This document shows, piece after piece, positions 2,695-35,576 of a DNA stretch of 64,000 nt. Each line of letters begins with the position of its first letter. The first letter of the stretch is position 1. The stretch spans positions 9,010-73,009 of the forward strand of contig CAVWRF010000015.1 of NCBI GenBank assembly GCA_963757325.1, given 5' to 3'. Below the pieces are notes generated by a model that saw nothing but the letters and a program-made list of their open reading frames with translations, was not told the origin of the DNA and ran no database searches. Both the position numbers and the translations under genes were made by a program. This DNA comes from Candidatus Melainabacteria bacterium (GTDB taxonomy: Bacteria; Actinomycetota; Actinomycetes; Mycobacteriales; Pseudonocardiaceae).

Positions 2695-2935
2695 CGCTGG
2701 TCTGTCGCCTGACTTTCGGAACCCGTTGGTCGGCAAAGGGCCGCGCGGGCCAGCTTGACGCGTTCACACGATGGCTACTAGGCTAAACCAAAGTTACACA
2801 TTGATCGAACCAATGTGTCGACTGATAAAGAAACATATACGTCGGGGGCGACGGGCAGCAGGGGAACGGGCGAGAAAGGGCTGAACAGGTCCAATTGTGC
2901 CGCGTCCTCGTGGTGCGGCAGCGAGGGGATTCCAC

Positions 2936-3808
2936 ATGAGGCTGGCTTTACTGGGCCCGCTGTGCCTCACGCACAGCGGGTGTGAGGTCGTCATCAACTC
3001 GGGGCGGGCACGCACCGCGCTGGCGTTGCTGGGACTGAGTCCTGGTCGCACGGTGTCGTTCGACGAACTGATCAACGAGCTGTGGTCGGGCAGGCCGATC
3101 CGCGACGGGCGCAACGCACTGCACGCCACCATCGCACGACTGCGCAGGCTGCTGGTCTCGGTCGACGGAGGCAGGGACGTCATCCGGACCACCGGCGGTG
3201 GCTACGTGTTCGACCTGCTTGGCGGTTCGGTGGACGTGCAGCGGTTCGACTCGTTGTCCCGCGAGGGATCGGCACTGATCAAGCGGGAACCGCACCGGGC
3301 GATCGAGATGCTGCGCGAGGCGCTCGCGCTGTGGCGCGGGCCCGCGCTGGCCGACGTGGGCGACGGCGTGCGCTGCCGTGCGGCGGCGGCATACCTGGAC
3401 GAGCAGCGGCTCACCACCGAGGAGGACCTGTTGGCCTCCCGGCTGGCGATCGGGGAGGAGTGGCTGGCCACGGCGGAGCTGAAGCAGCTCGTCGGCGACC
3501 ATCCCGGCCGGGAACGGCTGAGCGAGTACCTGATGCTGGCGCTGTACCGCAGCGGCCGGCAGAGCGAGGCGGTGTCGGTCTTCCAGTGCACCTGCAACTG
3601 GTTGAGCAACGAGCTGGGTCTGCAACCGGGCAGGCCGCTGCAGGAGCTGTACCAGGCGATCCTGTTGCAGAGCCCGAGTCTGGACCACAGGGCCGATCCC
3701 AGATCGCTCGGTTCGGTCCGCGCGGCCGCTCCGGCCGCCGCCCGCGCGCATGTGCGCAACGGTGCGGATGCCCGGCTCGGCAGACCGGACGACCTGCGGG
3801 CCGGCTGA
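2936..3808 (+). CDS. SARP-family transcriptional activator (OmpR-type winged helix + BTAD)
   Basis: MRLALLGPLCLTHSG..ALLGLSPGRTVSFDELINELW..RLRRLL..GGGYVF, then a BTAD-like helical region (ALWRGPALADV...YLMLALYRSGRQSEA). GAGGGG lies 8 nt upstream of the ATG. Codon 5 is TTA. Confidence 0.85.
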   Translation: MRLALLGPLCLTHSGCEVVINSGRARTALALLGLSPGRTVSFDELINELWSGRPIRDGRNALHATIARLRRLLVSVDGGRDVIRTTGGGYVFDLLGGSVDVQRFDSLSREGSALIKREPHRAIEMLREALALWRGPALADVGDGVRCRAAAAYLDEQRLTTEEDLLASRLAIGEEWLATAELKQLVGDHPGRERLSEYLMLALYRSGRQSEAVSVFQCTCNWLSNELGLQPGRPLQELYQAILLQSPSLDHRADPRSLGSVRAAAPAAARAHVRNGADARLGRPDDLRAG

Positions 3809-3820
3809 CGATCCAACGGG

Positions 3821-5569
3821 TCAGGCCGGTCGGCCGGCCAGTTCCTCGACCAACCGGGCCACGGTGCGGCTGGTCATGACGTCGTGGACGGTGAACATCA
3901 GCCCGTGCCGGCGTGCCTCGTTCACCACGAGCGCCGCACCGAGGCTGGTGCCGCCGAGGGCGAAGAAGTCGTCGCCCGTGCCGACCGTGTCCTCCGTGCT
4001 GGAGAAGCGCGCGAACAGGTCGCACAGCAGTTGCTGCTCGGTCGTGCGCGGAGCTCGGAACCGCGCTCCGGTGCCGAATCTCGGTGCCGGCAGGGCGGCG
4101 GTGTCCAGCTTGCCGTTCGCGTTGAGCGGCAACGTGTCCAGCTCCACCCACACCGAGGGCACCATGTACTCCGGCAGGCTGGCCGCGGCGTGCTCGCGCA
4201 GCCACCGGTCACCGGACACGGCACCGTCGGCGACGACGACGTAGGCGAGGACATGCTGGTCCGACGCGACGACGGCGGCCTGCGCGATGTCCCTGTGGCA
4301 CAGCAGCACCGACCGGATCTCGCCCAGTTCGATCCGGTGACCGCGGATCTTGACCTGGTCGTCGGCGCGGCCGAGCATCACCAGCGCACCATCGGGCATG
4401 CGCCGGACGCGGTCGCCGGTGCGGTACATCCGGCTGCCCGGCGCCCCGTACGGATCGGCGACGAACCGCCCGGCGGTCAGGCCGGGACGCCGCAGGTAGC
4501 CGCGGGTCACCTGGCCACCGCCGATGTACAGTTCGCCCACCTCGCCGTCGGGCACCGGCCGCAGCCCCTCGTCCAGCACGTGCGGCACGGTCGTCCAGGT
4601 GGGACCGCCGATCGCGACCGGCCCGGGACCGACGTCGTCACCGGGGCGCACGAAGTGCACGCAGCAGCCGACGGTCGCCTCGGTCGGGCCGTACTCGTTG
4701 ACGACGGTGACGCCCGGGTTCGCGCGCCGGAACTCGGTGAGCACCTCCTCGGGCAGCACCTCACCGCCGACCACCAGATCCGTCGTCGGCGACGCGCTCG
4801 CCGGCAGGCCGGCCAGCAGCGGCAGGTGCGACGGTGTCGCCTTGAGCAGGGTGGGCGGCGTCGTCAGTTCGCCCAGCGCGGCGATCCGCACCCGGCCACC
4901 GGCCAACAGCGGTGCGTACAACGTCGTGACGGCCATGTCGAACGCGGTCGACGAATGCAGCACGGCCTCGCCGCGCACCCCCGGATAGTGCGCCAGGCAG
5001 TACGCCAGATAGACCGTCAGCGACCGGTGTTCCACCACGACGCCCTTGGGCACACCCGTGGAACCGGACGTGTAGATGACGTACGCGGGGTGTTCGGGCC
5101 GCAGCGGGGTCGTCCGGTCGGCGTCGGTCACGTCCGCCGTGGACGCGGCGGCGAGCGCGGTCTCCGTGTCCGGGTCGTCGGGCACGACCAGCGGCACGCC
5201 GAAACCTGCTGCCGCGTCCCGGTCGGCCGCCAGCGCGACGACCAGTGCGGGCCGCGCGTCGGCCATCATGTGCGCGATCCGCCCGCGCGGGTTGTCCAGT
5301 TCGACGGGCACGTACGCCGCGCCCGCCTTGAGCACCGCGAGGTACGCCACCAGCAGCTCGGCCGAACGGCGCATCAGCACGGCCACCAGGTTCTCCGGCC
5401 CCGCACCACGCGCGGCCAGCAGCCGCGCCAACCGGTTCACGGCCGCGTTCAGTTCGGCGTAGGTCAGCGTCGTCTCGTCGTCCGATACGGCGGGCGCGTC
5501 CGGGGTCGCGGCGACCTGCCGCTCGAACCATTCGGGCAGCAGGACCTGCGGGATGTCGGGGTCGTCCAC
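3821..5569 (-). CDS. Stand-alone NRPS adenylation-thiolation (A-T) didomain, Asn-type specificity code
   Basis: Motifs seen: [61 protein letters not shown], then the carrier motif FFALGGTSL. Start taken as GTG 5569, just after the upstream stop at 5599 (start uncertain). Extracted code is DMTKVGEVGK. Confidence 0.85.
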
Positions 5570-5598
5570 TGTGTGCCGTCCTCGGGTCCGGAGGGTGA

Positions 5599-6450
5599 TC
5601 AGGCCGGCTCGCCCGCTGTCGCGGTGCCGAGCAGGTCCGACAGCGCGCGGGCGGTGCCGGTGTGCCGCAACAGGTCGTCGTGGCCGACGTCCAGCACGAC
5701 GTCGTGCCCCACGTCGACGGCCCTGCCGCCGGCCGAACGGATCGCCGTCGCGCGAGCCCACCTCGGCTCCGGGTCGTACAGCGTCGCCGCCGTCAGATAC
5801 CGCACCAGGGTGCCGAACACGCCCGCCAGTTCGTCGCGGACCTCGTTGTCCAGACCGATCCGCTCGGCGATGCCGCCCATCGTCGCCGTGAACACCTCGC
5901 CCAACTCCCGGCCGACGGCGATCAGGTCGTCACCGCGCTCGGCGCGCACCCGGTCGGCAGCCGCGTGGTAGCGGTCCAGCTCACCGGGCATCATCATCGC
6001 CGCCATCGAGTCGCCCGCGGCGTGGAAGTCGCGGTACAGACCTGTCGAGTTGGGCAGTTCCGGGTCGAACAGCACCAGGCGCGGCACGGCCAGTTCGGCC
6101 GCGATCCGGGCCGCGAGCACGGCGCCAGCGCAGTAGCCGACGACGGCGTTCACCTGCCTGCCCGACCGCCGCACCTCGGCCAGCCACCAGTCGACGTAGG
6201 CGTCCGGCGTGACGGTAACGGGCGGCGCCGCGGTCTCCCACACCGTCAGCGGTGGATCGAGCAGCCCGACCAGGTCGCGGAACGCCGCCGTCGTGCGTCC
6301 CGTGCTGTTGAAATCCACCGCGAGCACGACGTCCCGTCCCGGACCCTGCGCAAGCACGTGCCACGACTTCCCGGTCACAGCGAATACCCCTCCGTGCGAG
6401 TTTTCCGCCGCAACGGCGGCCGCGAAATGCAGACCGAGGCATAGGAACAA
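5599..6450 (-). CDS. Alpha/beta-hydrolase-fold protein with Gly-x-Cys-x-Gly nucleophile elbow (SyrC/CmaE-like aminoacyl shuttle candidate)
   Basis: [15 protein letters not shown] sits where type II thioesterases carry GHSxG. Downstream Asp (LFDPE) and His (DVGHDD) are triad candidates. It lies directly upstream of the A-T gene on the same strand. Start uncertain. Confidence 0.6.
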
Positions 6451-6552
6451 GACCCCGGAATCCCCTTCGGGTCACCCTACTCCGGGGTGTACCGGCACCA
6501 CCAGCGTGTTGTCGCACAGCCATTTCGCGCCGTTGTCGGGCCCGGAAGAATT

Positions 6553-6560
6553 AATATAGA
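6553..6560 (-). promoter_or_regulatory. TCTATATT box, copy 2 (upstream of the hydrolase/A-T operon)
   Basis: The plus strand reads AATATAGA, which is TCTATATT on the minus strand. It lies about 100 nt upstream of the minus-strand start at 6450. Confidence 0.4.
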
Positions 6561-6927
6561 TCGGCCGGAGGACCGGACCGGTTTTCGGTTGGCACGGTAT
6601 CCGCCGTTTGCCTGCCGGGTTCTGTCAGCGCACGGTCATCCGCCTGTCATCGGGCCTCCGTAGTCTTCCGTTGGTTCTCCGCGCCGGGGTGTCGGCAACG
6701 GGACCGATACGGCTTGAGGAGGTTCGCCGGAAATGAGGGTTTCCGGCGAGCGGGACCGGACACAGGGGAGCTGAATAGTCATCGTGCTACTCGCGGGTCA
6801 TCGCCCGGGTGCCGCGCTGCGCGCGGCGGGCCGGCGGGACGCGCGACGTACGAAACGGTCCGGCTGGATCTCCCGGGGACGTGGTGGCTGGCGGAGGCGC
6901 CAGCGCTGAGACACCGGAGGGGCACAC

Positions 6928-8109: not shown

Positions 8110-9333
8110 GTGCACCAGGAAGGGGACGTTGAGAGAGTTGTGATCACCGGTTTGGGTGTGGTCAGCAGTATCGGTACCGGCGCCGACGACTTCTGTGCCG
8201 CGCTGCGCGAGGGGCGCAGCGGGGCGAAGCCGATCACGGCGTTCGACACCACCGGCTTTCCGCACTCGGTGGGCTGCGAGGTCACGGGGTTCGACCCGCG
8301 GCGGTGGCTGGAGCGGCTGGAGCCGCGGGTGACCGGCCACGCCACCAGGTTCGCCGCCGCGGCCGCCCGGATGGCGGTCGCGGACTGCGGGCTCGACGTC
8401 GAGGAACTGCGCCGTCGCCGGGTGCTGGTGTCCATCGGCACCAACGACGGCGAGGCACGAGACCTCGACACGCTCACGGAACGACACCTGGCAGGCGAGT
8501 CGTTCGACCCGGCGCTGGCCGCGCGGGCCGACACCAACCGGCTGGCCTCCGGGGTGGTCCGTGAATTGGAGCTGCGTGACGTGGAGACGATGACGATCGT
8601 CACCGCGTGCGCGGCGGGCAACTACGCGATCGGCAGCGCGTTCGACGCGATCCGGTCCGGTGACGTGGACATCGCGCTGTGTGGTGGCGCGGATGCCGTG
8701 TGCCGCAAGACGTTCAGCGGCTTCTACCGGTTCGGCACGATCGCGCCGGAGATGTGTCAACCGTTCGACAGGGACCGCAAGGGCCTGCTCACCAGCGAGG
8801 GCAGTGGGGTGCTCGTGCTGGAGAGCCTGCGATCGGCTCGGGCCCGCGGTGCCTCGATCCACGCCGAGGTGCTCGGTTACGGGCTCAACTGCGACGCCGG
8901 CCACGCCGTCGCTCCTGACCAGGACAACCTGGCCAGATGCATCCGGCTCGCACACCACAACGCCGGCATCCAGCCGGCGGACGTGGACCTCATCTCGGCG
9001 CACGGCACCGGCACACCGACCAACGACGTGGTCGAGTCCGGCGCGATCCGCCAGGTGTTCTCCGCCCCACCGCCCACGGTGTCGGTGAAGAGCATGATCG
9101 GGCACGCGATGGGGGCGGCGAGCGCGCTGGCCGCCGTCGCGTGCGTGCTGGCCATCCGGGAGGGCTTCATTCCGCCCACGATCAACCACGCGAACACCGA
9201 TCCGGCCTGCGGGCTGGACTGTGTGCCCAACAGGGCTCGGCAGGCGGAGCTGAACGTGGTGCAGAACAACGCCCTCGCGTTCGCGGGCAACAACGCGGTT
9301 CTGTTGCTCGGCAGACACCGGGAGACCGTATGA
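8110..9333 (+). CDS. Beta-ketoacyl-ACP synthase (KS-alpha type, catalytically complete)
   Basis: VVITGLGVVSSIG; active-site Cys in TACAAGNYAIG; His residues in SAHGTGTPTND and KSMIGHAMGAAS. GTG start. Confidence 0.9.
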   Translation: MHQEGDVERVVITGLGVVSSIGTGADDFCAALREGRSGAKPITAFDTTGFPHSVGCEVTGFDPRRWLERLEPRVTGHATRFAAAAARMAVADCGLDVEELRRRRVLVSIGTNDGEARDLDTLTERHLAGESFDPALAARADTNRLASGVVRELELRDVETMTIVTACAAGNYAIGSAFDAIRSGDVDIALCGGADAVCRKTFSGFYRFGTIAPEMCQPFDRDRKGLLTSEGSGVLVLESLRSARARGASIHAEVLGYGLNCDAGHAVAPDQDNLARCIRLAHHNAGIQPADVDLISAHGTGTPTNDVVESGAIRQVFSAPPPTVSVKSMIGHAMGAASALAAVACVLAIREGFIPPTINHANTDPACGLDCVPNRARQAELNVVQNNALAFAGNNAVLLLGRHRETV

Positions 9334-10448
9334 CAATGGTGGAGGTACCCGGCCCGGCACGTGCGGGCCGGGCGGTGTCGGACACCCGGACGCTGGTGTT
9401 GTCCGGGTGGTCCGCGGTGACCGCCTACGGGATGGGTCGCGACTCGCTGCGGGAGGGCGTGCTGTCCGGCAGGTCGGCGATCGTCGACGTCGACCGGGAC
9501 GGGGCAGCGGGCACGTCCGACCGGGTGGCCGCCGTGCCCGGGTTCAACGCGGCGGATCACTTGGGGCGCAAGGGAACCCGCACGATGGGCCGATCGGTGG
9601 CATTCGCCGTCACCGCGATCGACCAGTTGCTGCGGGAACTGGGCCCCGACGTCACGGCCGATCCGGAGCGGATCGGGCTGGTGCTCGGCGTCGGCCAGGG
9701 CAACGTGCAGGTCGCGATGGAGTTCACCCGCGGCGCGCTGACCGCGACCAGGCCGTACCAGGTGGACGCCATCCGGTTCCCGGACACGTTCCTCAACCGG
9801 GCGGCGGGGCACAGCGCGATCTGGCACCGTCTCAAGGGGCCGAACACGACCATCGCGGGCGGCAGGCTGTCCGCGTTGCTTGCGCTGAGCTACGCGACGC
9901 GGCTGCACGACAACGGACACTGTCCCCGGCTGCTGGTCGGTGCCACCGAGGAGTACTCGGCGGCACGCGCGATGCTGGCCGACGCGACGGGCGTCTCGCC
10001 GGAACTGGGCGAGGGCAGCGTCGTGGCCCTGCTGGAGTCGGCCACCGACGCGGCCGACGCGGGCCGTACCCCGGTGGCCACCGTGCTGGCGACGCACTTC
10101 CGGGCCTGCCCGGAGCCGGCAGCCGGTGCCCTCGAACTGGCGGCGTGTGTCGGTGCGGTGCTCACCAAGGCCGGTGCCACGGCCGACCGGATCCGGCTGG
10201 TCGCGCCGCTGGACCTGTATCCGGAGCACGAGGCGGCAGGCATCCACGAGGTGATCGGCCACGCCCGGCCGCACTGGCTGCACTGCCGTCCGCTGCTGGG
10301 CGACGCGTTCGGCGCGTCGGCGGCCCTGCAGCTCGGGGCCGCGCTGGCCGTCGGGCAGTACTGGCCGGACCCCGGTGACCTGGCTCTGGTCACCGGCATC
10401 GAGCAGGACGGCACCGTCGGCGCCGCACTGCTCGGGCGTCCCGTTTGA
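9330..10448 (+). CDS. KS-beta / chain-length-factor-like protein (no active-site Cys)
   Basis: ATGA overlap with the KS stop. KS fold (GMGRDSL...GRKGTRTMGRS...), but TIAGGRLSAL replaces the Cys motif. Confidence 0.8.
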   Translation: MTMVEVPGPARAGRAVSDTRTLVLSGWSAVTAYGMGRDSLREGVLSGRSAIVDVDRDGAAGTSDRVAAVPGFNAADHLGRKGTRTMGRSVAFAVTAIDQLLRELGPDVTADPERIGLVLGVGQGNVQVAMEFTRGALTATRPYQVDAIRFPDTFLNRAAGHSAIWHRLKGPNTTIAGGRLSALLALSYATRLHDNGHCPRLLVGATEEYSAARAMLADATGVSPELGEGSVVALLESATDAADAGRTPVATVLATHFRACPEPAAGALELAACVGAVLTKAGATADRIRLVAPLDLYPEHEAAGIHEVIGHARPHWLHCRPLLGDAFGASAALQLGAALAVGQYWPDPGDLALVTGIEQDGTVGAALLGRPV

Positions 10449-12860: not shown

Positions 12861-13079
12861 CCTTTCTGCACCGTCGTACGGCGCCCGACTGGTTTCGATC
12901 GCCGCACGCGAGATCCGTGTTCGCAGAGTGTTCAGGGGATTTTTCCCACGCGAGCGGGTTCTTACTCGGCTGGCGCTCCGCGGGAGTCGCTCCTCAAGTA
13001 ATTGTTGTCAATCTAGGTCGGCGGCGTCCGGGCTGTCAACGAATCCGCCGGGATGCCCCGTGCGAGAAGTTTCAAACTT

Positions 13080-13087
13080 TCTATATT
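13080..13087 (+). promoter_or_regulatory. TCTATATT box, copy 3 (upstream of the sbnB-sbnA-NRPS operon)
   Basis: Exact 8-mer about 125 nt upstream of ATG 13213, in the divergent halogenase/sbnB intergenic region. Confidence 0.4.
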
Positions 13088-13212
13088 TCCTCTGCCGTTG
13101 CGCATCCGCCCAGCTCGGAAAGTGTGCTGTCAGTGCGGTGTCAGCGGTTCGTCAGTGGCAGGCGCGATTATTGTCCGGTGTCGGAGGTCAGGGAATAGGG
13201 GTTGGCGAGAAC

Positions 13213-14247: not shown

Positions 14248-14262
14248 GCGCCGGGGGACGAG

Positions 14263-15255
14263 ATGCCGGTGATCACCCGCCCCGAGCAGTTCAACGTCGG
14301 CGACCTCTACGTGGCCATGGAGCCGATGTTCGACCTGCCGCTGTACCTCAAGTGCGAGGGCTTCAACTTCGCCGGTTCGGTGAAGCTGAAGGCGGCACTG
14401 GAGATGATCGAGGTGGCGGAGCGGTCCGGCGCGCTGCGGCCGGGCACGACGATCGTCGAGAGCTCGTCGGGCAACCTCGGCGTCGCGCTGTCCATGGTCG
14501 CCGCCAGCTACGGCTACGGCTTCGTGTGCGTCACCGACTCGCGCTGCACGGTCAGCGCTCAGCGGTTGATGCGGGCGCAGGGCGCGGACGTGCGCGTGGT
14601 GACCGAACCGGACGCCGAACGCGGGCTGCTCGGCGCGCGGCTGGCGCTGGTCGGGCGGCTGTGCCGGGAGAACGACAGGTACGTGTGGCTCAACCAGTAC
14701 GGCAATCCGGCGAACTGGGGCGCGCACGCGCGCACCACCGGTCCTGAGGTCCTCAAGGAGTTCCCGGAACTGGACGTGCTGTTCGTCGGCGCCGGCACCA
14801 CGGGCACGCTGATGGGCTGCGCGCGCTACCTGCGCGAGGAGAAGCCGTCGGTGCGGATCGTCGCGATCGACGCGGAGGGCTCGATCACGTTCGGGTTCCC
14901 GCCCGGGCCACGGCTGCTCCCCGGCCTCGGCACCGCGGTGCGGCCGGCGCTGCTGGACCGGTCCTACGTCGACGACGTCGTCCTGGTGTCCGAACTGGAC
15001 ACCGTGCGTGCCTGTCGGACCTTGCAGCGCAACGGTTTCCTGTTCGGCGGATCGACGGGGACGGTGGTCAGCGGTGCGCTGCGGTGGCTGGCCGAGCACG
15101 CGCCCGGTGGTGACGTGACCGCCGTGGCGATCGCGCCGGACCTCGGCGAGCGGTACCTGGACACCATCTACGACGACGAATGGGTGGTCGACCACTTCGG
15201 TGCCGGGGTGCTGGCCCCGGCGGGATCCGGCACCACCACGAGGAGCGATTCGTGA
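14263..15255 (+). CDS. sbnA: SbnA-like PLP-dependent enzyme (cysteine synthase fold), Dap biosynthesis
   Basis: GSVKLKAA (PLP Lys), IVESSSGNLGVALSM, WLNQYGNPANW, IVAIDAEGSITFG, LFGGSTGTVVSGA and IAPDLGERYLDTIYDDEW parallel SbnA. Confidence 0.85.
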   Translation: MPVITRPEQFNVGDLYVAMEPMFDLPLYLKCEGFNFAGSVKLKAALEMIEVAERSGALRPGTTIVESSSGNLGVALSMVAASYGYGFVCVTDSRCTVSAQRLMRAQGADVRVVTEPDAERGLLGARLALVGRLCRENDRYVWLNQYGNPANWGAHARTTGPEVLKEFPELDVLFVGAGTTGTLMGCARYLREEKPSVRIVAIDAEGSITFGFPPGPRLLPGLGTAVRPALLDRSYVDDVVLVSELDTVRACRTLQRNGFLFGGSTGTVVSGALRWLAEHAPGGDVTAVAIAPDLGERYLDTIYDDEWVVDHFGAGVLAPAGSGTTTRSDS

Positions 15256-18200
15256 CCACAGCACAGCGGCGCCAGGTGGCGGCGGACCGGACGGTGTTCC
15301 CGCTGATGGCCGGTCAGGCTGAGATCTGGTACGACGAGCGGTTCTCCGGCGGCACGCCCGCCTACAACTCCGGTGTGTGCGTGCACATCGACGGCCCGCT
15401 GGACGCGGGCGTGCTGGAGGCGTCGGTCCGGCAGTTGGTGGACGAGGCCGAGTGCACGCGGATCCGGTTCGTCGAACAGGACGGCCTGCCCCGGCAGACC
15501 GTGCGACAGCTCCCCACACTGCCGATGGGCTGGCACGACCTGTCCGGCCGGCCGGACCCGGACGCGGCCGCCCGGCGGTGGATCAACGCGGATCTGGTCC
15601 GCCCGTTCTCGATGACCGACTTCCCGCTGATGCGGCTGGCCGCGCTGCGGCTGGGCCCCGAGCGCACCCAGCTCTACCTGAACATCCACCACGCGGTCAG
15701 CGACGGCTTCAGCCATGTCGTGTACTGGCGGCGGTTCGCCGAGATCTACGCCGCGCGCGCCACCGGCGGCGACCCGGGCCGCGGCGCGCTGCCGCCGCTG
15801 CGGCTGCTGATCGAGGAGGAGGAGTCGTACCTGGGGTCCCGGTTCGAGCAGCGGGACAGGGCGTTCTGGCGGGACCGGTTCCCGAAGCCCACCGAGGTGA
15901 CGACGCTGTCCACCCGGTCGCCGGTGGACTCGCTGCCGCGTGAGTTCCTGCGCAGCACCAGCGTGCTGGACGAGCGGATCACCGGCGCGGTGCGCGCCGC
16001 GGCCGCCGGGGCCGGCGTGACCACCGGCGCGCTGCTGATGGCCGCGACATCGTTGTACGTCAACCGGATCACCGGCGCCCCCGACGTGACGCTGACCGTC
16101 GCGGCAGGCGCCCGGATGAGCGCCGCCGCGCGCAAGATCCCCGGCATGACGGCGAACTTCCTGCCGATGACGGTGCGCGTGGACCGTGCCGAGCAGCGGC
16201 CGGACCTGCTCCGGCGGACGTCGGCGGAGCTGGCCGGACTCCTCCGCCACCAGCGGTACCGCGTCGGCGCGATCCGCCGTGATCTCGGCCTGGGGGCCGA
16301 CGACCGGTGGCCGGCAGGGCCGTTCGTGAACATGCTGCCGCTGCTGGTCGCGCTGGACATGGGGCCGTGCGTGGGAACGGTGGAGAACATCACCACCGGT
16401 CTGGTCAGCGACATGATGGTGACCACTGTCGACACGCCGGGCGAGAACCTGCGACTGAACATCAACGGCAACCCCGATCTGTACCACCCGGACGAGGTGT
16501 CCGACCACCTGGCGCGGTTCGGCGCGTTCCTCGGCCGGTTCGCCGGCAGCGCGTCGGACACGCCGGTCGGTGACGTGCCGCTGCTCGGCTCGGTCGAGAT
16601 CGGCCGGTACGACCACATGTCGGCGGGCCCGGTGCGCGAGGACCCGCACCTGAGCGTGCCGGCGGCGATCCGCGCCGTCGCCGCGCAGGACCCGGACGCG
16701 GTCGCGCTGGTCGACGGCCGCGCGGACGACCCGCGCGAGGTGACGTACGGGCAGTTGGTGGCGCGCGCGAACGCGCTGACCCGGCGGCTGCCGGCTGTCG
16801 GGCTGGTCGGCGTGTTGGCCGGACCGGGCGCCGACTTCGTCGTCGGCGTGCTGGGTACGTGGGGTGCCGGCGCGGCGTACGTGCCGCTCGACGTGCGGGC
16901 ACCCGCCGCGCGCACCGCGGCCCTGGTGGCGGACAACGGGATCGGCTGCCTGCTGGTGGACGCGGAACACCGCGAACTGGCGGAGGAGGTCGTCGCGGGG
17001 TCCGATGTGGACATCCTGCTGCTCGCCGACGTCGAGGACGGGGAACTGGCCGCGCTGCCCGACGATCCGGCCGAACTGGCGTACGTGATCTTCACGTCCG
17101 GTTCCACCGGCACGCCGAAGGGCGCGATGGTGCAGCACGGCGGCATGGTGAACCACCTGCGCGCCAAGATCGAGGATCTGCGCCTCGCGTCGACCGACCT
17201 GGTGGTGGCCAACGCGCCGCTCACCTTCGACATCTCCGTGTGGCAGCTCTTCGCGGCGCTGCTGGTCGGCGGCCGGGTGCGGATCGTGCCACGGGAGGTC
17301 GCCGCCGACCCGAACCTGCTGTTCCCGCTGACCGTGCGGGACGGCGGGACGGTGCTGGAGGTGGTGCCGTCGCTGCTGCGCGCCGCGTTGGACTCGTGGG
17401 ACGCGCTGGACGGTGGCCCCCGGCTGCGTGGCCTGCGCTGGCTGCTGGTCACCGGTGAGGCGATGCCGGTCGAGCTGTGCCGTCGGTGGTTCGCGCGCGA
17501 GCCGAAGGTGCCGGTGCTCAACGCGTACGGCCCGACCGAGTGCTCGGACGACGTGACACACGCGGTGCTGACGGCGAAGGACGGCGTTGCCACCACCGCG
17601 CAGCGGCGGGTGCCGATCGGCCGTGCGGTGCGCAACACGGCGCTGTACGTGCTGGGTGACGACCTGTGCGCGGTGCCGCGTGGCGCGATCGGCGAGCTGT
17701 ACGTCGGCGGCTGTGGCGTCGGCCGTGGCTACCTCGGTGACCCGGTGAAGACGTCGGCCACGTTCCTGCCCGACCCGTTCGCCGGCCGGGGAGCGCGGAT
17801 GTACCGCACCGGTGACCGGGTCGTGTGGCGGCCGGACGGCCAGTTGGAGTTCGTGGAACGCCGCGACCACCAGGTGAAGGTGCGCGGCAACCGGATCGAG
17901 CTGGCCGAGGTCGAGGCCGCGATGCACGGGCTGCCTCGGGTGCGCGACGCTGCCGTGGCCGTGTTCGGCGAGTCGGGCAGGCAGCGGCTGATCGGCTACG
18001 TCGTGCCAGCGGGCCCGGCCACGATCGACCTGGAACTGCTGCGCGAACGGCTGGCCGGTGTGCTGCCCGAGTACATGGTGCCCTCGGTCCTCATGACGCT
18101 GCCGGCGCTGCCGCTGACGTCGCACGGCAAGGTGGACCGCAAGGCGCTGCCCGAACCGGAGACGGCGACCGTCACCGCGCGCGAGGGCAGGGGTGCGGAG

Positions 18201-19850
18201 ACGCCGGAGGAGGAACTGCTCTGCCGGCTGCTCGCCGACGCGCTCGGTCTGCCGGTGATCGGGCCGGACGACAACTTCTTCACCCTCGGCGGCGACAGCA
18301 TCATCTCGATCCAGGTGTCCAGCCGCATCCGGCGGGAGGGTCTGCTGGTCACCCCGCAGCAGATCTTCCGGCTCAAGACGCCCGGCGCGATCGCCGCGGC
18401 CGCGAAACCGGTGCGGCCGCTGGCCGTGCCGCGCTCCGAGGACGGTGTCGGCGAGGTCGAGCCGCCGCCGGTCGCCCAGCAGCTACGCGAGGATCTGGCG
18501 CCACTGGGTGCGGACGGCCTGCCGGAGGCCGCTCGCCGCTACGGCCAGTACGTCGTGTTCGAGCTGCCGTCCGATGTGGACGCCGACCGGCTCACGTTCG
18601 CGTTGCAGGCCGTACTCGACCACCACGACGCGCTGCGCATGCGGGTGACCGTGCCGGCGCCGGGGCAGTGGGCGCTGGAGGCGCTGCCGCCGGGTTCGGT
18701 GAAGGCGGCCGACGTGCTCACCGAGACCGATGCGGCGCCGGTACCCGAACTGGCCGCCGCCGCGCAGCGCGGGCTGGACCCGGAGAACGGGATCGTCACG
18801 CGGGTGGTACTGGTGCGCGGTGCGGCTGGCGAGCCGGACCGGTTGCTGTGGCTGGTGAACCACCTGTGCGTCGACGGCGTGTCCTGGCGGGTGCTGGTGC
18901 CGGACCTGCGTGAGGCGTGGCAGTCCGTGCTGGCCGATCAGGAGATCGCGCTGGCCGCCGTCGGCACGTCGTACCGCCGCTGGTGCCGCGCGCTCGGCCG
19001 GAGCGCGGGTTCCGCCGCGCGGCTCGCGGAGTTCCCGGAGTGGCTGGCCGCGGTGCGCGATCCGGGGCCACCACTGGCCGACCGGCCGCTGGACCCGCTG
19101 CGCGACACGTATGCCACCGGGCACTCGCTGCGCCTGGTGCTGCCGCCGGAGATCACCCGGCCGCTGCTCACCTCGACGCCCGCGGACCTGGGCGTCGAGG
19201 TGAACGACGTGCTGCTGACCGCGCTGGGCATCGCCGTCGCCGACTGGCGGCGCCGCAGGGGAGAGCCGGCGGAGCAGGTTCTGGTGGAACTGGAGGGTCA
19301 CGGCCGGGAGCCGATCGCGGAGGAGGACCTTGCCCGCACGGTCGGCTGGTTCACCAGCATCTTCCCGGTGCGGCTGGACGTGTCGGCTGCCGGCGCGGCA
19401 CCGGACCGGGACGACATCTGGGCGGGCGGCACCGCACTGGGCGCGCTCGCCACGGCGAGGCACGCCGTGCCCGACCGAGGTCTGGGCTACGGCCTGCTGC
19501 GCTACCTGAACGCACAGACCGAGACCGCGCTCGCGCGGTTCGCGCCGCCCGAAGTCGGCCTGAACTACCTGGGCTGGTTCACCGCGGGCGCCGGGACGGG
19601 CGCATGGCGGCTGGACGGCGGCAACGCGGTGATCAGCACCGCGACGACCCCGGACATGCCGTTGCGGCACGTGCTGGCGGTCACGCCCGTCACCGAGGAC
19701 CGGCCGGGCGGGCCGTGCCTGGTGGCCGACTGGCTCTGGGCGGGCGAGCTGTTCGCCGACGCCGACGCCGAGGACATCGCGCGCACCTGGTTCCGGGCGC
19801 TGCGCACACTGGTGATCCACAGTGGACACAATGGTGGGGAGACATCGTGA
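15252..19850 (+). CDS. NRPS-1: starter C - A - T - E (module 1)
   Basis: GTGA overlap with the sbnA stop. C domain HHAVSDG. A domain YVIFTSGSTGTPKG, NAYGPTE, YRTGD, PLTSHGKVD (code DIWELTADDK). T domain FFTLGGDSI. E domain NHLCVDGVSWRVL plus ELEGHGRE. Confidence 0.9.
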   Translation: MTTAQRRQVAADRTVFPLMAGQAEIWYDERFSGGTPAYNSGVCVHIDGPLDAGVLEASVRQLVDEAECTRIRFVEQDGLPRQTVRQLPTLPMGWHDLSGRPDPDAAARRWINADLVRPFSMTDFPLMRLAALRLGPERTQLYLNIHHAVSDGFSHVVYWRRFAEIYAARATGGDPGRGALPPLRLLIEEEESYLGSRFEQRDRAFWRDRFPKPTEVTTLSTRSPVDSLPREFLRSTSVLDERITGAVRAAAAGAGVTTGALLMAATSLYVNRITGAPDVTLTVAAGARMSAAARKIPGMTANFLPMTVRVDRAEQRPDLLRRTSAELAGLLRHQRYRVGAIRRDLGLGADDRWPAGPFVNMLPLLVALDMGPCVGTVENITTGLVSDMMVTTVDTPGENLRLNINGNPDLYHPDEVSDHLARFGAFLGRFAGSASDTPVGDVPLLGSVEIGRYDHMSAGPVREDPHLSVPAAIRAVAAQDPDAVALVDGRADDPREVTYGQLVARANALTRRLPAVGLVGVLAGPGADFVVGVLGTWGAGAAYVPLDVRAPAARTAALVADNGIGCLLVDAEHRELAEEVVAGSDVDILLLADVEDGELAALPDDPAELAYVIFTSGSTGTPKGAMVQHGGMVNHLRAKIEDLRLASTDLVVANAPLTFDISVWQLFAALLVGGRVRIVPREVAADPNLLFPLTVRDGGTVLEVVPSLLRAALDSWDALDGGPRLRGLRWLLVTGEAMPVELCRRWFAREPKVPVLNAYGPTECSDDVTHAVLTAKDGVATTAQRRVPIGRAVRNTALYVLGDDLCAVPRGAIGELYVGGCGVGRGYLGDPVKTSATFLPDPFAGRGARMYRTGDRVVWRPDGQLEFVERRDHQVKVRGNRIELAEVEAAMHGLPRVRDAAVAVFGESGRQRLIGYVVPAGPATIDLELLRERLAGVLPEYMVPSVLMTLPALPLTSHGKVDRKALPEPETATVTAREGRGAETPEEELLCRLLADALGLPVIGPDDNFFTLGGDSIISIQVSSRIRREGLLVTPQQIFRLKTPGAIAAAAKPVRPLAVPRSEDGVGEVEPPPVAQQLREDLAPLGADGLPEAARRYGQYVVFELPSDVDADRLTFALQAVLDHHDALRMRVTVPAPGQWALEALPPGSVKAADVLTETDAAPVPELAAAAQRGLDPENGIVTRVVLVRGAAGEPDRLLWLVNHLCVDGVSWRVLVPDLREAWQSVLADQEIALAAVGTSYRRWCRALGRSAGSAARLAEFPEWLAAVRDPGPPLADRPLDPLRDTYATGHSLRLVLPPEITRPLLTSTPADLGVEVNDVLLTALGIAVADWRRRRGEPAEQVLVELEGHGREPIAEEDLARTVGWFTSIFPVRLDVSAAGAAPDRDDIWAGGTALGALATARHAVPDRGLGYGLLRYLNAQTETALARFAPPEVGLNYLGWFTAGAGTGAWRLDGGNAVISTATTPDMPLRHVLAVTPVTEDRPGGPCLVADWLWAGELFADADAEDIARTWFRALRTLVIHSGHNGGETS

Positions 19851-21270
19851 CGCGGTCGGAGAAAGCTGTGACGGGCGACAGGGAACGCGACGTGGCGGAC
19901 GTCGCGCTGACCCCGCCGGTGCAACGGCTGCGGGACCGGACCGGCGTGCTGGACGGACCGGCGCAGCGGCTCGGCGAGTACCTGATCGTGCCGGCGCCGA
20001 AGGGCACGAACCTCGCCGTGCTGACCGAGGCCGTGCGGGCGCTGGTGGACCGGCACGAGGCGTTGCGGCTGTGTCTGGCCGAACCGGTCGAGGGCCTGTG
20101 GTCGGCAGGCGTGCTGCCGCCCGGCGCGGTGCGCGCGGAGTCGTTGGTCAGCAAGGCGCCCCCGAAGGCCGAACCGGCCGAAGTGGCCGCGAAGGCGCGG
20201 GCCCGGCTGGCCGTGCGGGACGGCGTCGTGCTCCAGGCGGTGCTGCTCACCGGACGGCGTGTCCTGGTGCTGGCCCACGAACTGGTCGTCGACGCGGCGT
20301 CCTGGCGGGTGCTCGTCGACGATCTGCTCGCGTGCTGCGCGGACGTCGTCGCGGGCCGTGAGCCGATGGTGCCCGACGTGGCCGTGACCTATCGGGACCG
20401 GGCAGCGGACCTGGCCGGTCAGGCTCGGGCCGCGCGGCGGGTGCGGGAACTCCCGACGTGGACGGAGCAACTCGACCCGGACGCGCGGCTGGTGCCGGGG
20501 GCAGCGCTGGATCCGTTGGTGCACAACGTGTCCGCGCTGCGCCACCACCGGCAGGAGCTGTCCGCCGCCACCAGTTCGGCGTTGCTGGGCGCGCTGCCGG
20601 CGGCGTTCCACGCGCGGACCGAGGACGCGCTGCTGACCGCGCTGGCGCTGGCCGGTTCCGCGCACCGCGGCGAGGCCGAGGCCGGTCGCACGGCCGTGCT
20701 CGTCGAACTGGCCGCGCCGCACGCCGGTGCCGACCGCACGATCGGCCGCTGTGTCACGGGTTTCCCGGTCCGCGTGGACGCCGCCGTGACCTGTGTCGAG
20801 GACCTGGCCGCCGGTGACGCCGATCTGGACGGTGCGGTCAAGCGCGTCAAGGAGCAGGTGCGGGCGCTGCCCGACGGCGGCAGCGGCTACGGCGTGCTGC
20901 GGCACCTCAACCCGCAGACCGGCGGTGTGCTGGCCCGCCGTGGCACGCCGCAGGTGCTGCTGCGCTTCGACGGCGAACTGCCCGCCCCTGTGACCGCCGA
21001 GGCCGACCCGAGGACGCCGGTCAGCCACGTCGTCACCGTGACCGTGACGGTGTGCGACGGCAGGCTGGTCGCGGACTGGGCGTACCTGCCGGATCTGCTG
21101 CCCGGCGGCGGGGAACTGGCCGCCGAGTGGTCGCGGCTGCTGGACCTGCTCGCCGCGCACACCGCGACGCCGCACGCCGGCGGCCGCACGCCCTCGGATC
21201 TGACCGTCTCGACGCTCACCCAGTACGAGATCGAGAACTTCGAGGCCGATCTCGGCCGGCTGCAGGACGT
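19847..21270 (+). other. E* domain: epimerisation-like domain with both catalytic motifs degenerate
   Basis: Motif comparison with the E domain of NRPS-1 immediately upstream (18440-19850). Confidence 0.7.
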
Positions 21271-21442
21271 GCTGTCGCTGTCGCCGCTGCAGAAGGGCAT
21301 GCTGTTCCACGCGGGCATGCACAAGGACGAACTGGACGTCTACCACGTCCAGGTGCTCGCCGACCTGACCGGCCCGCTGGACGCGGGCCGGCTGCGTGCC
21401 GCGGCGGCCGCGCTGCTGGACCGGCACGTGAACCTGCGCGGG
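19847..21442 (+). CDS. NRPS-2, fragment a: degenerate E-like domain (E*) plus the N-terminal part of C2; frame breaks near 21440
   Basis: GTGA overlap with the NRPS-1 stop. E-like fold with [14 protein letters not shown] and VELAAPHAG in place of HHxxxDG and EGHGRE, then [18 protein letters not shown] and [11 protein letters not shown]...[10 protein letters not shown]. Confidence 0.8.
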
Positions 21443-21443
21443 C

Positions 21444-24400
21444 TGCTTCCGCTACAGCGCGACCGGCGAGCAGTTGCAGATCATCCCGGAGTCGGTCGAA
21501 CTGCCCTGGACCGACGTCGACCTGAGCGGCGCGTCAGAGGACGAGCTGGCCGGGTTCGCCGCCGCCGACCGGGACCACGGTGTCGACCTGGCCGTGGCAC
21601 CGCTGATGCGGTTCACGCTGATCCGCACCGGAGCCGACTCGCACCGTCTGTTGTGGACGTTCCACCACATCGTGGCCGACGGCTGGTCCACGCCGATCGT
21701 GATGCGCGAACTGCTGGCCGCCTACCACGCGGGCGCGGGTTCGCTCACCGAGCCGCGTCCGTACCGGGACTACCTGAGCTGGCTGGAGAGCCGGGACGAC
21801 AGGGCCGCCAGGCAGGCGTGGCGGGCCGCGATGTCGGCCATCACCGAGGCGACGCTGATCGCGCCGCACGGCGAACAGACCCCGCCGGTGCGGCCCGAGT
21901 ACGTGTTCGTCGAACTGCCGCAAGCCCTGACGTCCGCCCTCACCGAGTTCGCGCGCGGGCGCGATCTGACCCTGGGCACCGTGATGCACTGCTGCTGGGC
22001 GATCCTGGTCGGCCAGCTCACCGGCAGCAGGGACGTCGTGTTCGGCAGCGTGCAGTCGGGGCGGCCCGCCGACCTGTCCGGTGTGGACGAGATGGTCGGC
22101 ATGTTCGTCAACACGCTGCCGGTGCCGGTGCGGCTGGACCCCTACCGGTCGTTCGCCGAGGTGGCCGCCGGTGTGCAGGACGAGCAACTCGGCCTGACCG
22201 AGCACCAGCACCTCGGCCTGGGCGACATCCAGCAGCTCACCGGTGTCCGCAGGCTGCTGGACACGTCGGTGACCATCCAGAACTACCCGATGGACGTCGC
22301 CGAGCTGAGCGCGATCGTCCCGGACCTCGCGGTCACCGGCATCCGCGCCGAGTTGTCCGGCGAGTACTCGATGGCGCTGCTGGTGCACCCGGGCAGCCGC
22401 ATCCGGCTGCAGTTGGCGTACCGCCCGGACCTGTTCCGCCCCACCGACGCCGAGCGCGTCGCGGAACGGCTGACCGGGCTGCTGGGCACCGTCGTGCACG
22501 ACGCCGACCGGCCGCTGGGCGCGCTCACCACGCTGACCGCCGCGGAGCGGGCCGACATCACCGGCGCGTGGGCGGGTTCGATCGAGCGGCGCAGGGTGTG
22601 CGACGCACCGACGCTGTTCGCCGAGCGTGTCGCCGCCGCGCCGGACGCGCCCGCGCTGAGCTGGACCGGCGGGTCGATGAGCTACGCCGAACTCGACGGG
22701 CGGGCCAACCGGATGGCCCGCGAGATGGTGGCGCGCGGCGCGGGGCCGGACACGATCGTCGCGCTCGTGCTGCCGCGCACGTCCGAACTGCTGGTGTCGG
22801 TGCTGGCCACGCAGAAGGCGGGCGCCGCCTACGTTCCCGTCGACCCGCGGTACCCGGCCGACCGGATCGCGTTCATGCTGGAGGACTCCCGGCCGGCCGT
22901 CGTCGTGTCCACAGTGGATATCGGTGCCGGCCTGCCGGCCACCGGCGCCCGAACGATCCTGGTCGACGACCCGGCCGACACGGCACGCGTCGCGGCACGT
23001 CCCGACGGCGATCTCACCGACGCCGACCGCACCCGGCCGCTGCTGCCGACCGACGCCGCGTACGTGATCTACACGTCCGGCTCGACCGGGCGGCCCAAGG
23101 GCGTCGTCGTGGACCACACCGGATTCACGAAGATGGTGTTCGACCTGATCACGCGGTTCGACGTCGGGCCGGACACCCGGATGCTGCAGTTCGCGCCCTC
23201 CAGCTTCGACGCGTCGATCTGGGAGTGGTCGATGGCGCTGCTCGGCGGCGGCACGCTGGTGCTGACCGACGAACTGAGCAGGCTGCCCGGCCCGGCGCTG
23301 GTCGACCTGATCGCGGAGCAGCGGGTCAACCTGCTGGCCTTCCCGCCCGCGGTGGCCGCCGCGCTGCCCGAGGGCAGCACCCTGCCCGCCGACCTGACCA
23401 TGGTGGTGGCCGGCGAGGCGTGCCAGAAGGAGGTCGTGGCGCGCTGGTCGGACAGCGTCCGGATGTTCAACGGCTACGGCCCGACCGAGACCGTGCTGGC
23501 GGCGACCGCGGAAGGCCCGCTGCACGGCCCGGAACGGCCCGCGATCGGCAGGCCGCTCGGCGCGCACCGGGTCCACCTGCTGGATTCGGCGCTGCGGCCG
23601 GTGCCGGCAGGAGTGACCGGCGAGATCTACGTCAGCGGCGGCCTGGCCCGCGGTTACCTGAACCGGGCCGGTTTCACGGCGACGCGGTTCGTCGCGTCGC
23701 CGTTCGACGCGTCGGGCGAGCGGATGTACCGCACAGGTGACCTGGCGCGCTGGGACGAGCGCGGCGTGCTGCACTACGCCGGCCGCGTCGACGACCAGGT
23801 GAAGCTGCGCGGCTACCGGATCGAACTGGGCGAGGTCGAGGCAGCGCTGCGCGGTGCGCCCGCGGTCGGCGACGCGTCCGTGGTGATCGGCGAGGACCGC
23901 GGCGGCAAGCGGCTGGTCGGCTACGTCGTGCCCGTGCCCGGCGGTGGCCTGCCGGACGTGGATGTGGTGCGCGAACACATCTCCGGTTCGCTGCCCGACT
24001 ACATGGTGCCCGCCGCACTGGTCGTGCTGGAGACGCTGCCGCTGACCCCCAACGGCAAGGTGGACCGCAAGGCGCTGCCCGAACCCGGCGCCGTGGCCCG
24101 CCCGGCCGGCCGGGCGCCCCGGACGCCGCTGGAGGAGACGCTGGCGTTCGTGTTCGCCGACGTGCTCGGCGTCGACTCGATCGGCATCGACGACGACTTC
24201 TTCGCGATGGGCGGCCATTCGCTGCTGGCCACCAGGGTGATCGGCCGGCTGCGGTCGATGCTGAAGCTGGAGGTGCCGATCAGGGCGCTGTTCGAGGCGC
24301 CGACGGTCGCGGGCCTCGCGCCGCGGATCGGTGGCGTGGCAGCGGCCCGGCCACCACTGCGGCCGGCGCCTGCCGGTGAACCGGTCGGGTTGTCGTTCGC

Positions 24401-30077: not shown

Positions 30078-30079
30078 CG

Positions 30080-33505: not shown

Positions 33506-33721
33506 TTGAGCAGCAACCCGTTCGACGACGAGAACGGCACCTTCCTGGTGCTGACCAACCCGGACGAGCAGTACTCGCTGTGGCCGTCGTTCGCGCAGCT
33601 CCCGGACGGCTGGACCGTGGTGCGTGAGCCGGGCACCAGGGCCGAGGCGCTGGAGTACGTGGAGACGCACTGGACCGACATGCGGCCCAGGTCGCTGCGG
33701 GATCGCGCGGCACGGCTGTGA
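33506..33721 (+). CDS. MbtH-like protein
   Basis: [38 protein letters not shown] carries the three MbtH Trp positions. TTG start follows AGGAGGAG. Confidence 0.85.
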
Positions 33722-35426: not shown

Positions 35427-35576
35427 TTTCAATGCAGGCGGCGTTCCATTCTCTGGTCCGACCGGACGGCCTTGGTTCTCGCTGTTCACGAATACCCGGG
35501 CCGGTTGTACGATCGAATCATTTCCGGTGCCTCATCGCATCCGATCGAGGCGAGTCAATTACTCGGAGGATTCCCC

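Follow-up and report, generated by a model that had tools for sequence, protein, structure and literature searches.

A free Asn-type A-T didomain and an NcmC/TrdC-family cysteine hydrolase as a candidate trans-loading cassette for a dead-A peptide synthetase module

How can a module of a nonribosomal peptide synthetase (NRPS) be charged with its amino acid when its own adenylation (A) domain is dead? This question is raised by a stretch of 64,000 nucleotides of contig CAVWRF010000015.1 (the window; all positions are counted from its first letter), which contains a high-GC actinomycete biosynthetic cluster. Two neighboring genes on the minus strand of the window encode an α/β-hydrolase with a cysteine nucleophile and a stand-alone didomain, which consists of an A domain with an asparagine-type specificity code and a thiolation (T) domain. 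In the third module of the cluster's NRPS, the A domain (A3*) is dead and the T domain (T3) is intact. We propose, tentatively, that the gene pair is a trans-loading cassette for module 3 and that the hydrolase would shuttle Asn from the free didomain to T3.

Trans-loading of NRPS modules that have no A domain is a recognized natural route for swapping building blocks. Two families account for the known shuttles, one comprising SyrC, CmaE and CysB, and the other comprising LgnA and WS20, which resemble type II thioesterases (TEII). A first-pass annotation of the locus had already suggested a shuttle of Asn to T3 by a hydrolase of the SyrC/CmaE kind. The shuttle is still the best single explanation, with delivery to T3 being the step that we infer, but the family had to be replaced and the amino acid that originally occupied position 3 was not Asn.

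The hydrolase

The gene of the hydrolase sits in an open reading frame (ORF) at 5599-6450 of the minus strand. Its likeliest start is the GTG at 6378, 8 nt past a GGAGGGG sequence, and its stop is at 5599. The product is identical to a database protein (P0001). The earlier description of this protein as an α/β-hydrolase with a cysteine nucleophile proved correct. The nucleophile elbow is GYCAG rather than GHSxG, there is no PF00975 match, and the nucleophile, Cys83, is unchanged in 18 of 18 homologues. An AlphaFold2 model, built with 18 homologues and having a mean pLDDT of 90, displays the α/β-hydrolase fold. Four lid helices (residues 111-124, 133-148, 152-173 and 178-198) form a four-helix bundle subdomain in the model.

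A Pfam scan gave no domain match for the protein, and NCBIfam gave a weak BchO-like match only. When phmmer was run on the Protein Data Bank (PDB), residues 4-250 of 259 matched NcmC (6E6T) with an E value of 4.8e-40, and nothing was matched beyond NcmC and its C89S point variant. A Foldseek comparison of the model with PDB structures also placed NcmC at the top (E 1e-25, TM-score 0.88, root mean square deviation of 2.1 Å over the full length, 39% identity), and the runners-up were thioesterase domains with TM-scores of about 0.6. Residues C83, D105 and H233 line up with the triad positions of NcmC. On these comparisons the hydrolase is assigned to the TrdC/NcmC-type 'Dieckmann cyclase' family, with its Cys-Asp-His triad and four-helix lid. 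The family has no Pfam model and comprises 526 members among 1.8 billion representative proteins. It had not been considered in the first-pass annotation. Because NcmC is far ahead of all other matches, the hydrolase would resemble SyrC and CmaE in chemistry and fold, but probably not in family.

The A-T didomain

The gene of the didomain most likely starts at the GTG at 5569, behind a GAGGA sequence, and stops at 3821. AMP-binding, AMP-binding_C and PP-binding domains are recognized by Pfam in the product, which keeps all core motifs: the P-loop, [28 protein letters not shown] and GGTS. Extraction of the ten specificity residues against PheA (1AMU) gives the code DMTKVGEVGK, the same Asn-type code that had been read from the sequence before. 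The PheA reference fragment was verified as being 100% identical to residues 234-526 of 1AMU and yields DAWTIAAICK for PheA itself. Compared with the canonical Asn code DATK(L/V)GEVGK, only position 236 differs clearly; at position 299, for which the canonical form has Leu or Val, the residue is Val. The hydrolase and A-T genes are separated by 29 nt, a gap in which no terminator-like site was found, so that their co-transcription is plausible.

The donor T domains of all hydrolase-linked A-T genes carry GGTS (FFALGGTSL), as opposed to the usual GGHS or GGDS. The acceptor proteins of three related loci (L003, L005 and L008), which consist of a condensation (C) and a T domain, carry GG(T/S/N)S. 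The GGTS-type donor motif may be a recognition signature for a partner enzyme. The pI values of the donor and acceptor T domains (5.14 vs 4.93) are uninformative.

The assembly line and its dead module

Two genes encode the assembly line, in which the domains are ordered Cstarter-A1-T1-E1 / E2-C-A2-T2-C-A3*-T3-C-A4-T4-TE (E, epimerization; TE, thioesterase). The code of A1 is DIWELTADDK, that of A2 is DAWAVAGLAK and aromatic-like, and that of A4 is DMLQVGVVW- and Gly-like. The substrate of A1 is probably 2,3-diaminopropionate (Dap), as judged from its code and the cluster context.

The lesions of A3* are extensive. The P-loop is deleted, D235 and the A5 motif are lost, a further deletion of about 29 residues covers A7, the Lys of A8 is replaced by Ala, and Lys517 is replaced by Met. 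The phosphopantetheine (Ppant) attachment motif of T3 is preserved. Judged from its motifs, module 3 combines a dead A domain with a T domain that is intact, in accord with the first-pass annotation. The dead-A module is internal, and the NRPS terminates in T-TE with GWSFG and GHEYLM motifs. The only starter C domain is fused to A1-T1, and there is no visible route in the window to an N-(β-ketoacyl)-aminoacyl thioester. Neither a TEII nor a type I polyketide synthase (PKS) is encoded in the 64 kb.

Gene 2 of the assembly line is broken in the window by three frameshifts, at ~21437-21445 (C2), 30066-30072 (the C-terminal subdomain of A4) and 30985-31000 (TE). The two that were inspected at the DNA level both fall in short G/C runs. 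Because the gene is one unbroken ORF of 3915-3929 aa in the orthologous clusters of all four other genomes, the three changes of frame are either assembly errors or real lesions in this strain.

Relatives of the hydrolase

Relatives of the hydrolase were sampled at 72 loci, with one genome per species, and at several metagenome loci. Their domains were annotated and all A-domain codes were extracted. In a neighbor-joining tree of 76 family members, the window hydrolase falls in a clade of 15 loci, which includes L001/L002, L003, L005, L008, L009-L014, L017 and L027. In 14 of these loci, all those that read far enough, the hydrolase gene is followed on its own strand by one for an A-T didomain (about 585 aa, code DMTKVGEVGK); in the fifteenth, L002, the contig ends within the next gene. 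The motif FFALGGTSL is common to the A-T proteins of the clade. A second A-T-linked clade, composed of Nocardia loci, L063 and L064, has the code DMTK(V/I)GEVGK, and in its enzymes the Asp is replaced by Asn and the His by Arg. Three further clades have no A-T neighbor. These are the TrdC-like clade, in which the next gene encodes an active C-A(Gly)-T, the clade in which NcmC groups with Amycolatopsis sequences, and a clade found in WS9326A-type clusters, such as that of S. calvus (L019). The acceptors without an active A domain that are visible in the A-T-linked loci are a free C-T (L003, L005 and L008), a C-T-C (Nocardia loci) and the C-A*-T of the window.

The Streptomyces form of the cassette (L003, L005, L008, L009-L014, L017 and L027) comprises the hydrolase, the Asn-type A-T, an optional C-T and an O-methyltransferase, followed by type I PKS genes. 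An amidase gene lies upstream of the hydrolase in most of these loci. The contig of L017 starts ~1.1 kb before the hydrolase, and the upstream gene there is TE-like, not an amidase. The PKS-type loci probably make an Asn-derived tetramate family.

The WS9326A-type cluster of Streptomyces calvus contains an NcmC-like homologue (L019, 10001-10780) that is about 42% identical to the window hydrolase. It keeps the Cys and the His and has Glu at the Asp position (LFEPE). The gene has the P450 that adjoins cal17 on one side and a double-hotdog dehydratase on the other, and a separate PF00975 thioesterase is encoded at 16831-17619. Because WS9326A has no tetramate, this locus would be another non-Dieckmann setting for the NcmC-like family. 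A published role for the gene was not found in the accessible literature.

The catalytic His of the family has been replaced by Arg (or Gln) several times independently (L001/L002; L053, L054, L059, L062, L063 and L064; L067, L073 and L074; L038, L060 and L061). In the group of Nocardia, L063 and L064, the Asp to Asn change accompanies the loss of the His. The Cys is never lost among the His-less members, which may be enzymes restricted to thioester exchange or pseudo-enzymes.

Sister clusters

Orthologous clusters were reached by a homologue search with NRPS gene 1. Eight orthologues of 74-81% identity were found, and four of the clusters could be read. A search for gene 2 orthologues with the E2 domain returned distant matches only, and a single metagenome scan with the A3*-T3 region returned no orthologue.

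The cassette is present with an intact Cys-Asp-His triad, and A3 is dead, both in the window and in L090/L094. The lesions are different, being deletions and Lys517 to Met in the former and point changes in the latter (in the P-loop, D235 to Gly, Lys517 to Thr), and therefore have independent origins. In L001/L093, A3 is intact and has the code of A1, DIWELTADDK; the cassette is present, and its cyclase carries the changes His to Arg and VDF to VRF. L091 (Streptomyces sp. SYP-A7185) has an intact A3 with a code near-identical to DIWELTADDK and no cassette in the locus. In L092 (S. aurantiacus), A3 is dead, with a damaged P-loop and Lys517 to Thr (residues ~1950-2500 of gene 2). No cassette is present in the 24.6 kb of this locus, and no close hydrolase homologue from S. 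aurantiacus was found in a search of 5.8 billion proteins. With a dead A3 and no cassette, T3 of S. aurantiacus would be either skipped or loaded otherwise, for which A1 is the obvious candidate.

The three cassette-bearing clusters thus display reciprocal decay, in which an intact cyclase triad goes with a dead A3 and a His-less cyclase goes with an intact A3. The nonsynonymous branch of the L001 lineage is about doubled both for the hydrolase (0.153 vs 0.113 and 0.081 for the other two) and for the A-T protein (0.128 vs 0.070 and 0.058), whereas NRPS1, the ketosynthase (KS) and the halogenase show no such lengthening. Such an acceleration is what redundancy between loading in cis by A3 and loading in trans by the cassette predicts. 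The pattern is suggestive, not decisive, because there are only five clusters.

By comparison of the codes, the ancestral residue 3 was the amino acid of residue 1, probably Dap, and not Asn. The shared code of A1 and A3 and the SbnB/SbnA-like gene pair just upstream suggest that the ancestral peptide had Dap both as residue 1 and as residue 3. Replacement of Dap by Asn at position 3 is predicted to shift the mass by +27.99 Da. The sister clusters form a comparative system for the replacement of an in-line A domain by a portable two-gene loading cassette, in which three states can be seen: an intact A3 in a locus without a cassette, a dead A3 with a cassette, and an intact A3 with a crippled cassette. 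The comparison can serve as a template for engineering residue swaps.

Proposed function and its alternatives

The proposed loading of module 3 would proceed as follows. The free A domain would activate L-Asn and load its own T domain (GGTS). Thioester exchange, the usual first half-reaction of the hydrolase's family, would then move the aminoacyl group to Cys83 of the hydrolase. The group would not be cyclized but handed to the phosphopantetheine thiol of T3, the A domain of which is dead. Finally, C3 would join the upstream acyl-dipeptide to Asn-S-T3, and the chain would pass on to the Gly-like module 4 and then to the TE at the end of the line. Because the family mechanism is proposed to start with acyl transfer from a T domain to the Cys, running that step backward onto another T domain would suffice for a shuttle. 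This is the best reading of the locus because the line ends in a TE, the acceptor is internal and no β-ketoacyl-aminoacyl substrate is visible. We regard it as having a little less than an even chance of being correct.

Somewhat more doubtful, but possible, is an extension of this role to the whole clade, which is always found beside an Asn-type A-T gene and is called BpdE-like here after the cyclase of the bripiodionen pathway. Its members would be carrier-to-carrier aminoacyl shuttles for A-less or dead-A modules, perhaps performing both jobs in tetramate pathways, and the lipopeptide-type cluster of the window, with a TE of its own and no Dieckmann substrate, would represent a natural separation of function, the shuttle role alone being retained. 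If this is true, the repeated loss of the Asp and His with retention of the Cys in NRPS-linked relatives marks enzymes that carry out thioester exchange only.

Several observations weigh against a shuttle in the window. Every characterized relative (TrdC, SlgL, LipX2 and NcmC, as well as BpdE through mutagenesis) has been described as a Dieckmann cyclase. The closest characterized relative of the A-T protein, WS23/Cal23, has proposed shuttles of the Ser-containing, TEII-like type, and an NcmC-like gene is likewise part of the WS9326A-type cluster. The T3 domain of S. aurantiacus can apparently be served in another way, and the L001 cluster has the cassette and an intact A3 together. The intact sister A3 carries the code of A1 instead of an Asn code, and A1 could load T3 in trans. 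The number of sister clusters is small, and the frameshifts in gene 2 may mean that the pathway is inactive in this strain.

Loading of T3 by A1, with Asn being used for another purpose by the A-T protein and the hydrolase, is the main alternative and a serious one, although less likely than the shuttle. A1 has the specificity of the ancestral A3 (probably Dap), its code being exact in the intact A3 of L093 and near-identical in that of L091. Consistent with this are the dead A3 of S. aurantiacus in a locus with no cassette, the cassette retained beside an intact A3 in the L001 cluster, the SbnA/SbnB-like genes that adjoin the NRPS, and the trans-iterative loading of Dap by CmnA-A1 on an A-less module (PMC12400406). 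Elsewhere, however, wherever the acceptor is visible, the A-T/hydrolase pair accompanies an A-less or dead-A C-T module, and the Asn of bripiodionen reaches the backbone through a second T domain. Furthermore, the acceleration of the cassette and the loss of the His occurred exactly in the lineage with an intact A3, which argues for redundancy with A3. In a variant of the A1 explanation, Asn would be moved from the carrier onto a nucleophile of the peptide, for example the side-chain amine of Dap, through an acyl-S-Cys intermediate, like the carrier-to-small-molecule acyl transfer of CouN7; acylation of an amine has no known precedent in the hydrolase's family. Unaided delivery of Asn to T3, either by the A domain or by the A-T protein as a whole, through direct trans-adenylation or spontaneous T-to-T transfer, is also unlikely. 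The hydrolase would then only edit, by hydrolyzing mis-loaded or stalled thioesters, or release a modified Asn in the manner of Bhp with β-hydroxytyrosine. The dead A3* would be unable to re-activate an amino acid that is set free, the Cys nucleophile and the thioester-exchange mechanism fit transfer better than hydrolysis, and the pairing of the hydrolase clade with A-T genes is strict. Nevertheless, the authors of the bripiodionen study proposed that BpdD might work alone, sets of A-T, P450 and hydrolase that free a β-hydroxy amino acid are known (cited in PMC7966384), and the P450 of the window is also related to OxyD.

Membership in the family and an intact triad are what a canonical Dieckmann condensation would call for, in which an N-(β-ketoacyl)-aminoacyl thioester, such as a polyenoyl-β-keto chain joined to Asn, is converted to a tetramic acid. 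An operon of acyl carrier protein (ACP), KS, chain length factor (CLF) and dehydratase genes is immediately adjacent and divergent, and the nearest members of the clade belong to type I PKS clusters whose products are probably tetramates. We nevertheless consider this reaction improbable here, since there is no C domain to couple a β-ketoacyl-ACP with the free A-T, the sole starter C being fused to A1-T1. In addition, the line has a TE of its own and its acceptor module is internal, the KS/CLF/dehydratase set is like those of fully dehydrated polyene makers, and an orthologue in the same type of cluster has no general-base His. Little credence is given, either, to the possibility that the cassette, or even the cluster as a whole, is in decay and has no current function in this strain. 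Both cassette genes are intact and keep all catalytic motifs, with pairwise dN/dS values of 0.2-0.47. The three frameshifts of gene 2 would speak for decay, but the two inspected ones are of a kind typical of assembly errors. The cassette is positioned at the edge of the cluster and is present in 4 of about 9 related clusters, which would also agree with decay.

Other genes of the cluster

The hydrolase/A-T pair is flanked by two SARP regulators (Table 1). Divergent to the pair are the ACP, the KS, a CLF-like gene (inside the ORF 8937..10448) and FabA/ApeI/ApeP-like dehydratases. This set resembles those producing fully dehydrated polyenes and would supply a lipid to the starter C domain. The intergenic region presumably holds promoters for both directions; a search of 6379..6927 for a sigma-70-like consensus found none. 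Beyond the dehydratases are a tryptophan halogenase, an OCD-like and PALP pair (12928-15255) and then the two NRPS genes. We take the OCD-like and PALP pair to resemble SbnB/SbnA, the makers of Dap. On the 3' side of the NRPS genes are a P450, an MbtH-like gene directly after it, and genes for ABC transporters, for a flavin reductase and for an O-methyltransferase.

The best solved match of the P450 is P450sky (PDB 4L0E, E 1e-155), and OxyD was also matched. The enzyme is predicted to be of the kind that hydroxylates carrier-bound amino acids. Because of this relationship to both P450sky and OxyD, hydroxylation of Asn on its carrier is possible. The O-methyltransferase (35472-36599) hints at an O-methyl-Tyr-like or a hydroxy/methoxy residue. 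It was considered as part of the conserved cyclase/A-T/O-methyltransferase cassette of the PKS-type loci and rejected, since the identity is only about 32%.

Two E-like domains lie back to back over the boundary between the NRPS genes, E1 at 18450-19847 and E2 at 19847-21250. E1 is canonical (NHLCVDG, EGHGRE, TVGWFT). E2, at the N terminus of gene 2, is degenerate, having lost [14 protein letters not shown]. The similar length of gene 2 in the sister clusters suggests that E2 is retained there. It may be a docking or recruitment domain, and the idea that it serves the P450 in the way of an X domain is purely speculative. Also considered was whether the free A-T might be a split module operating between the tandem E-like domains, which was discarded because no C domain is at hand and E2 has no EGHGRE.

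A cinnamoyl-type isomerase motif was sought in the window and none was found. Nonopeptins, which contain 5-Cl-Trp, Dap and OH-Asn, were rejected as the product because they belong to a different heptapeptide system. Colibrimycin, which is halogenated and has a C8 triene from a type II system (antiSMASH 'ladderane/NRPS'), may be related and is mentioned as a lead only.

Table 1. Positions of the cassette, the assembly line and adjoining features in the window
Feature	Position	Strand	Basis
SARP-family regulator beside the A-T gene, cluster edge	2897..3808	+	Pfam
Stand-alone A-T didomain, 582 aa, code DMTKVGEVGK (Asn-type)	3821..5569	-	Pfam, motifs, code extraction
T domain of the A-T protein; Ppant Ser542 codon 3944-3946 (FFALGGTSL)	~3824-4054	-	Motif
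NcmC/TrdC-family Cys α/β-hydrolase, 259 aa, candidate aminoacyl shuttle	5599..6378	-	ORF, start site, homology, model
His233 codon (VGHDDLL), catalytic His position of the family	5680..5682	-	Alignment; Arg in the L001-cluster orthologue
Asp105 codon (LFDPE), aligned to NcmC Asp116	6064..6066	-	Alignment
Cys83 codon (GYCAG), aligned to the NcmC Cys89 nucleophile	6130..6132	-	Alignment
Intergenic region with the hydrolase/A-T pair on one side and the divergent SARP/ACP/KS operon on the other	6379..6927	.	Putative promoter function
NRPS gene 1: starter C, A1 (DIWELTADDK), T1, E1	15180..19850	+	Database protein P0178, 1532 aa
NRPS gene 2: E2(degenerate)-C-A2-T2-C-A3*-T3-C-A4(Gly-like)-T4-TE	19847..31335	+	Domain annotation; orthologues are single ORFs
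Dead A domain A3*, NRPS module 3	25752..27044 (about)	+	Motif inspection
Ppant Ser codon of intact T3 (GGHS; [13 protein letters not shown]), proposed acceptor	27186..27188	+	Motif
P450sky-like cytochrome P450	32281..33480 (start approximate)	+	PDB sequence matches
MbtH-like protein	33512..33721 (true start slightly upstream)	+	Motif SNPFDDENG...LWP only

Comparison with known systems

The closest parallel is found in the bripiodionen pathway of Streptomyces reniochalinae. BpdE belongs to the cyclase family and its residues C89, D116 and H245 are essential, BpdD is an Asn A-T protein that is 52% identical to WS23, and BpdC is a C-A*-T with a dead A domain (PMC10956176). Both T domains are required, and transfer from one to the other was shown genetically (PMC10956176). 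Deletion of a TEII had no effect, a BLAST search with SyrC found no homologue in the genome, and no catalyst was named for the transfer (PMC10956176). The three-part set of a cyclase, an Asn A-T and a dead-A C-A*-T has therefore already been published for bripiodionen, and the general logic for cystobactamid and WS9326A. The window shares with bripiodionen the cyclase-type enzyme, the free Asn A-T of about 585 aa and the C-A*-T, grouped in one cassette. In bripiodionen, however, the dead-A module is the last one of a TE-less type I PKS-NRPS, the product is a tetramate and a Dieckmann step is needed, whereas the dead-A module of the window lies inside a four-module NRPS with a TE at its end. 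BpdE itself is absent from the tree. If the shuttle is true, the hydrolase provides a named candidate for the T-to-T step of bripiodionen-type pathways.

In the family to which TrdC, SlgL, LipX2 and NcmC belong, a T-bound β-ketoacyl-aminoacyl chain is moved to the Cys and the tetramic acid ring is closed (PMC10956176). The window hydrolase is like these enzymes in sequence, fold, four-helix lid and Cys-Asp-His triad. Their genes, unlike that of the window, stand beside the active C-A-T of a PKS-NRPS and form a separate clade, and their substrates are β-ketoacyl-aminoacyl chains; the window has no TE-less PKS-NRPS and its NRPS ends in T-TE. If the shuttle is true, the annotation 'Dieckmann cyclase, therefore tetramate' misleads genome mining wherever the gene lies beside an Asn A-T didomain.

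The hydrolase has in common with SyrC, CmaE and CysB the GxCxG elbow with its Cys, the α/β-hydrolase fold and a proposed aminoacyl-S-Cys intermediate between two carriers. The genomic context is also alike, with an A-T donor beside the hydrolase and an acceptor, T3, next to a dead A domain. In cystobactamid biosynthesis, Asn is picked up from CysH by CysB and brought to CysK-M3, a module with a dead A domain (PMC7966384). No sequence relationship to SyrC, CmaE or CysB showed in the Pfam, NCBIfam and PDB searches with the hydrolase, and SyrC matched nothing by BLAST in the genome that encodes BpdE (PMC10956176). On this indirect evidence the hydrolase looks like an independent recruitment of the α/β-hydrolase fold. 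If the shuttle is true, this would be a third, unrelated lineage of α/β-hydrolases recruited for the same chemistry.

LgnA, which works with LgnB in the biosynthesis of legonindolizidines, and WS5/WS20 of WS9326A are Ser-type, TEII-like shuttles. The pairs WS23/Cal23 with WS20 and LgnB with LgnA resemble the window in that a free A-T protein feeds an A-less C-T by means of a small α/β-hydrolase. Asn is the substrate of WS23/Cal23, and Cal23 adenylates it in vitro. WS23/BpdD-type A-T proteins are likewise about 580 aa long and have an Asn-type code, with an A-less or dead-A acceptor and an MbtH-like ORF in the cluster; the link is drawn from architecture, code and the published identity between BpdD and WS23. 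The shuttles WS20 and LgnA have GHSxG and belong to PF00975, whereas the window hydrolase has Cys for Ser and no PF00975 match.

In capreomycin biosynthesis, CmnA-A1 loads CmnI with Dap in trans (PMC12400406). CmnA-A1/CmnI is similar to the window in that an A-less or dead module is served by the A domain of another module with the same specificity, but no separate A-T protein or hydrolase is required. What distinguishes the window from the known cases of trans-loading is the family of the enzyme and the setting in which it is found.

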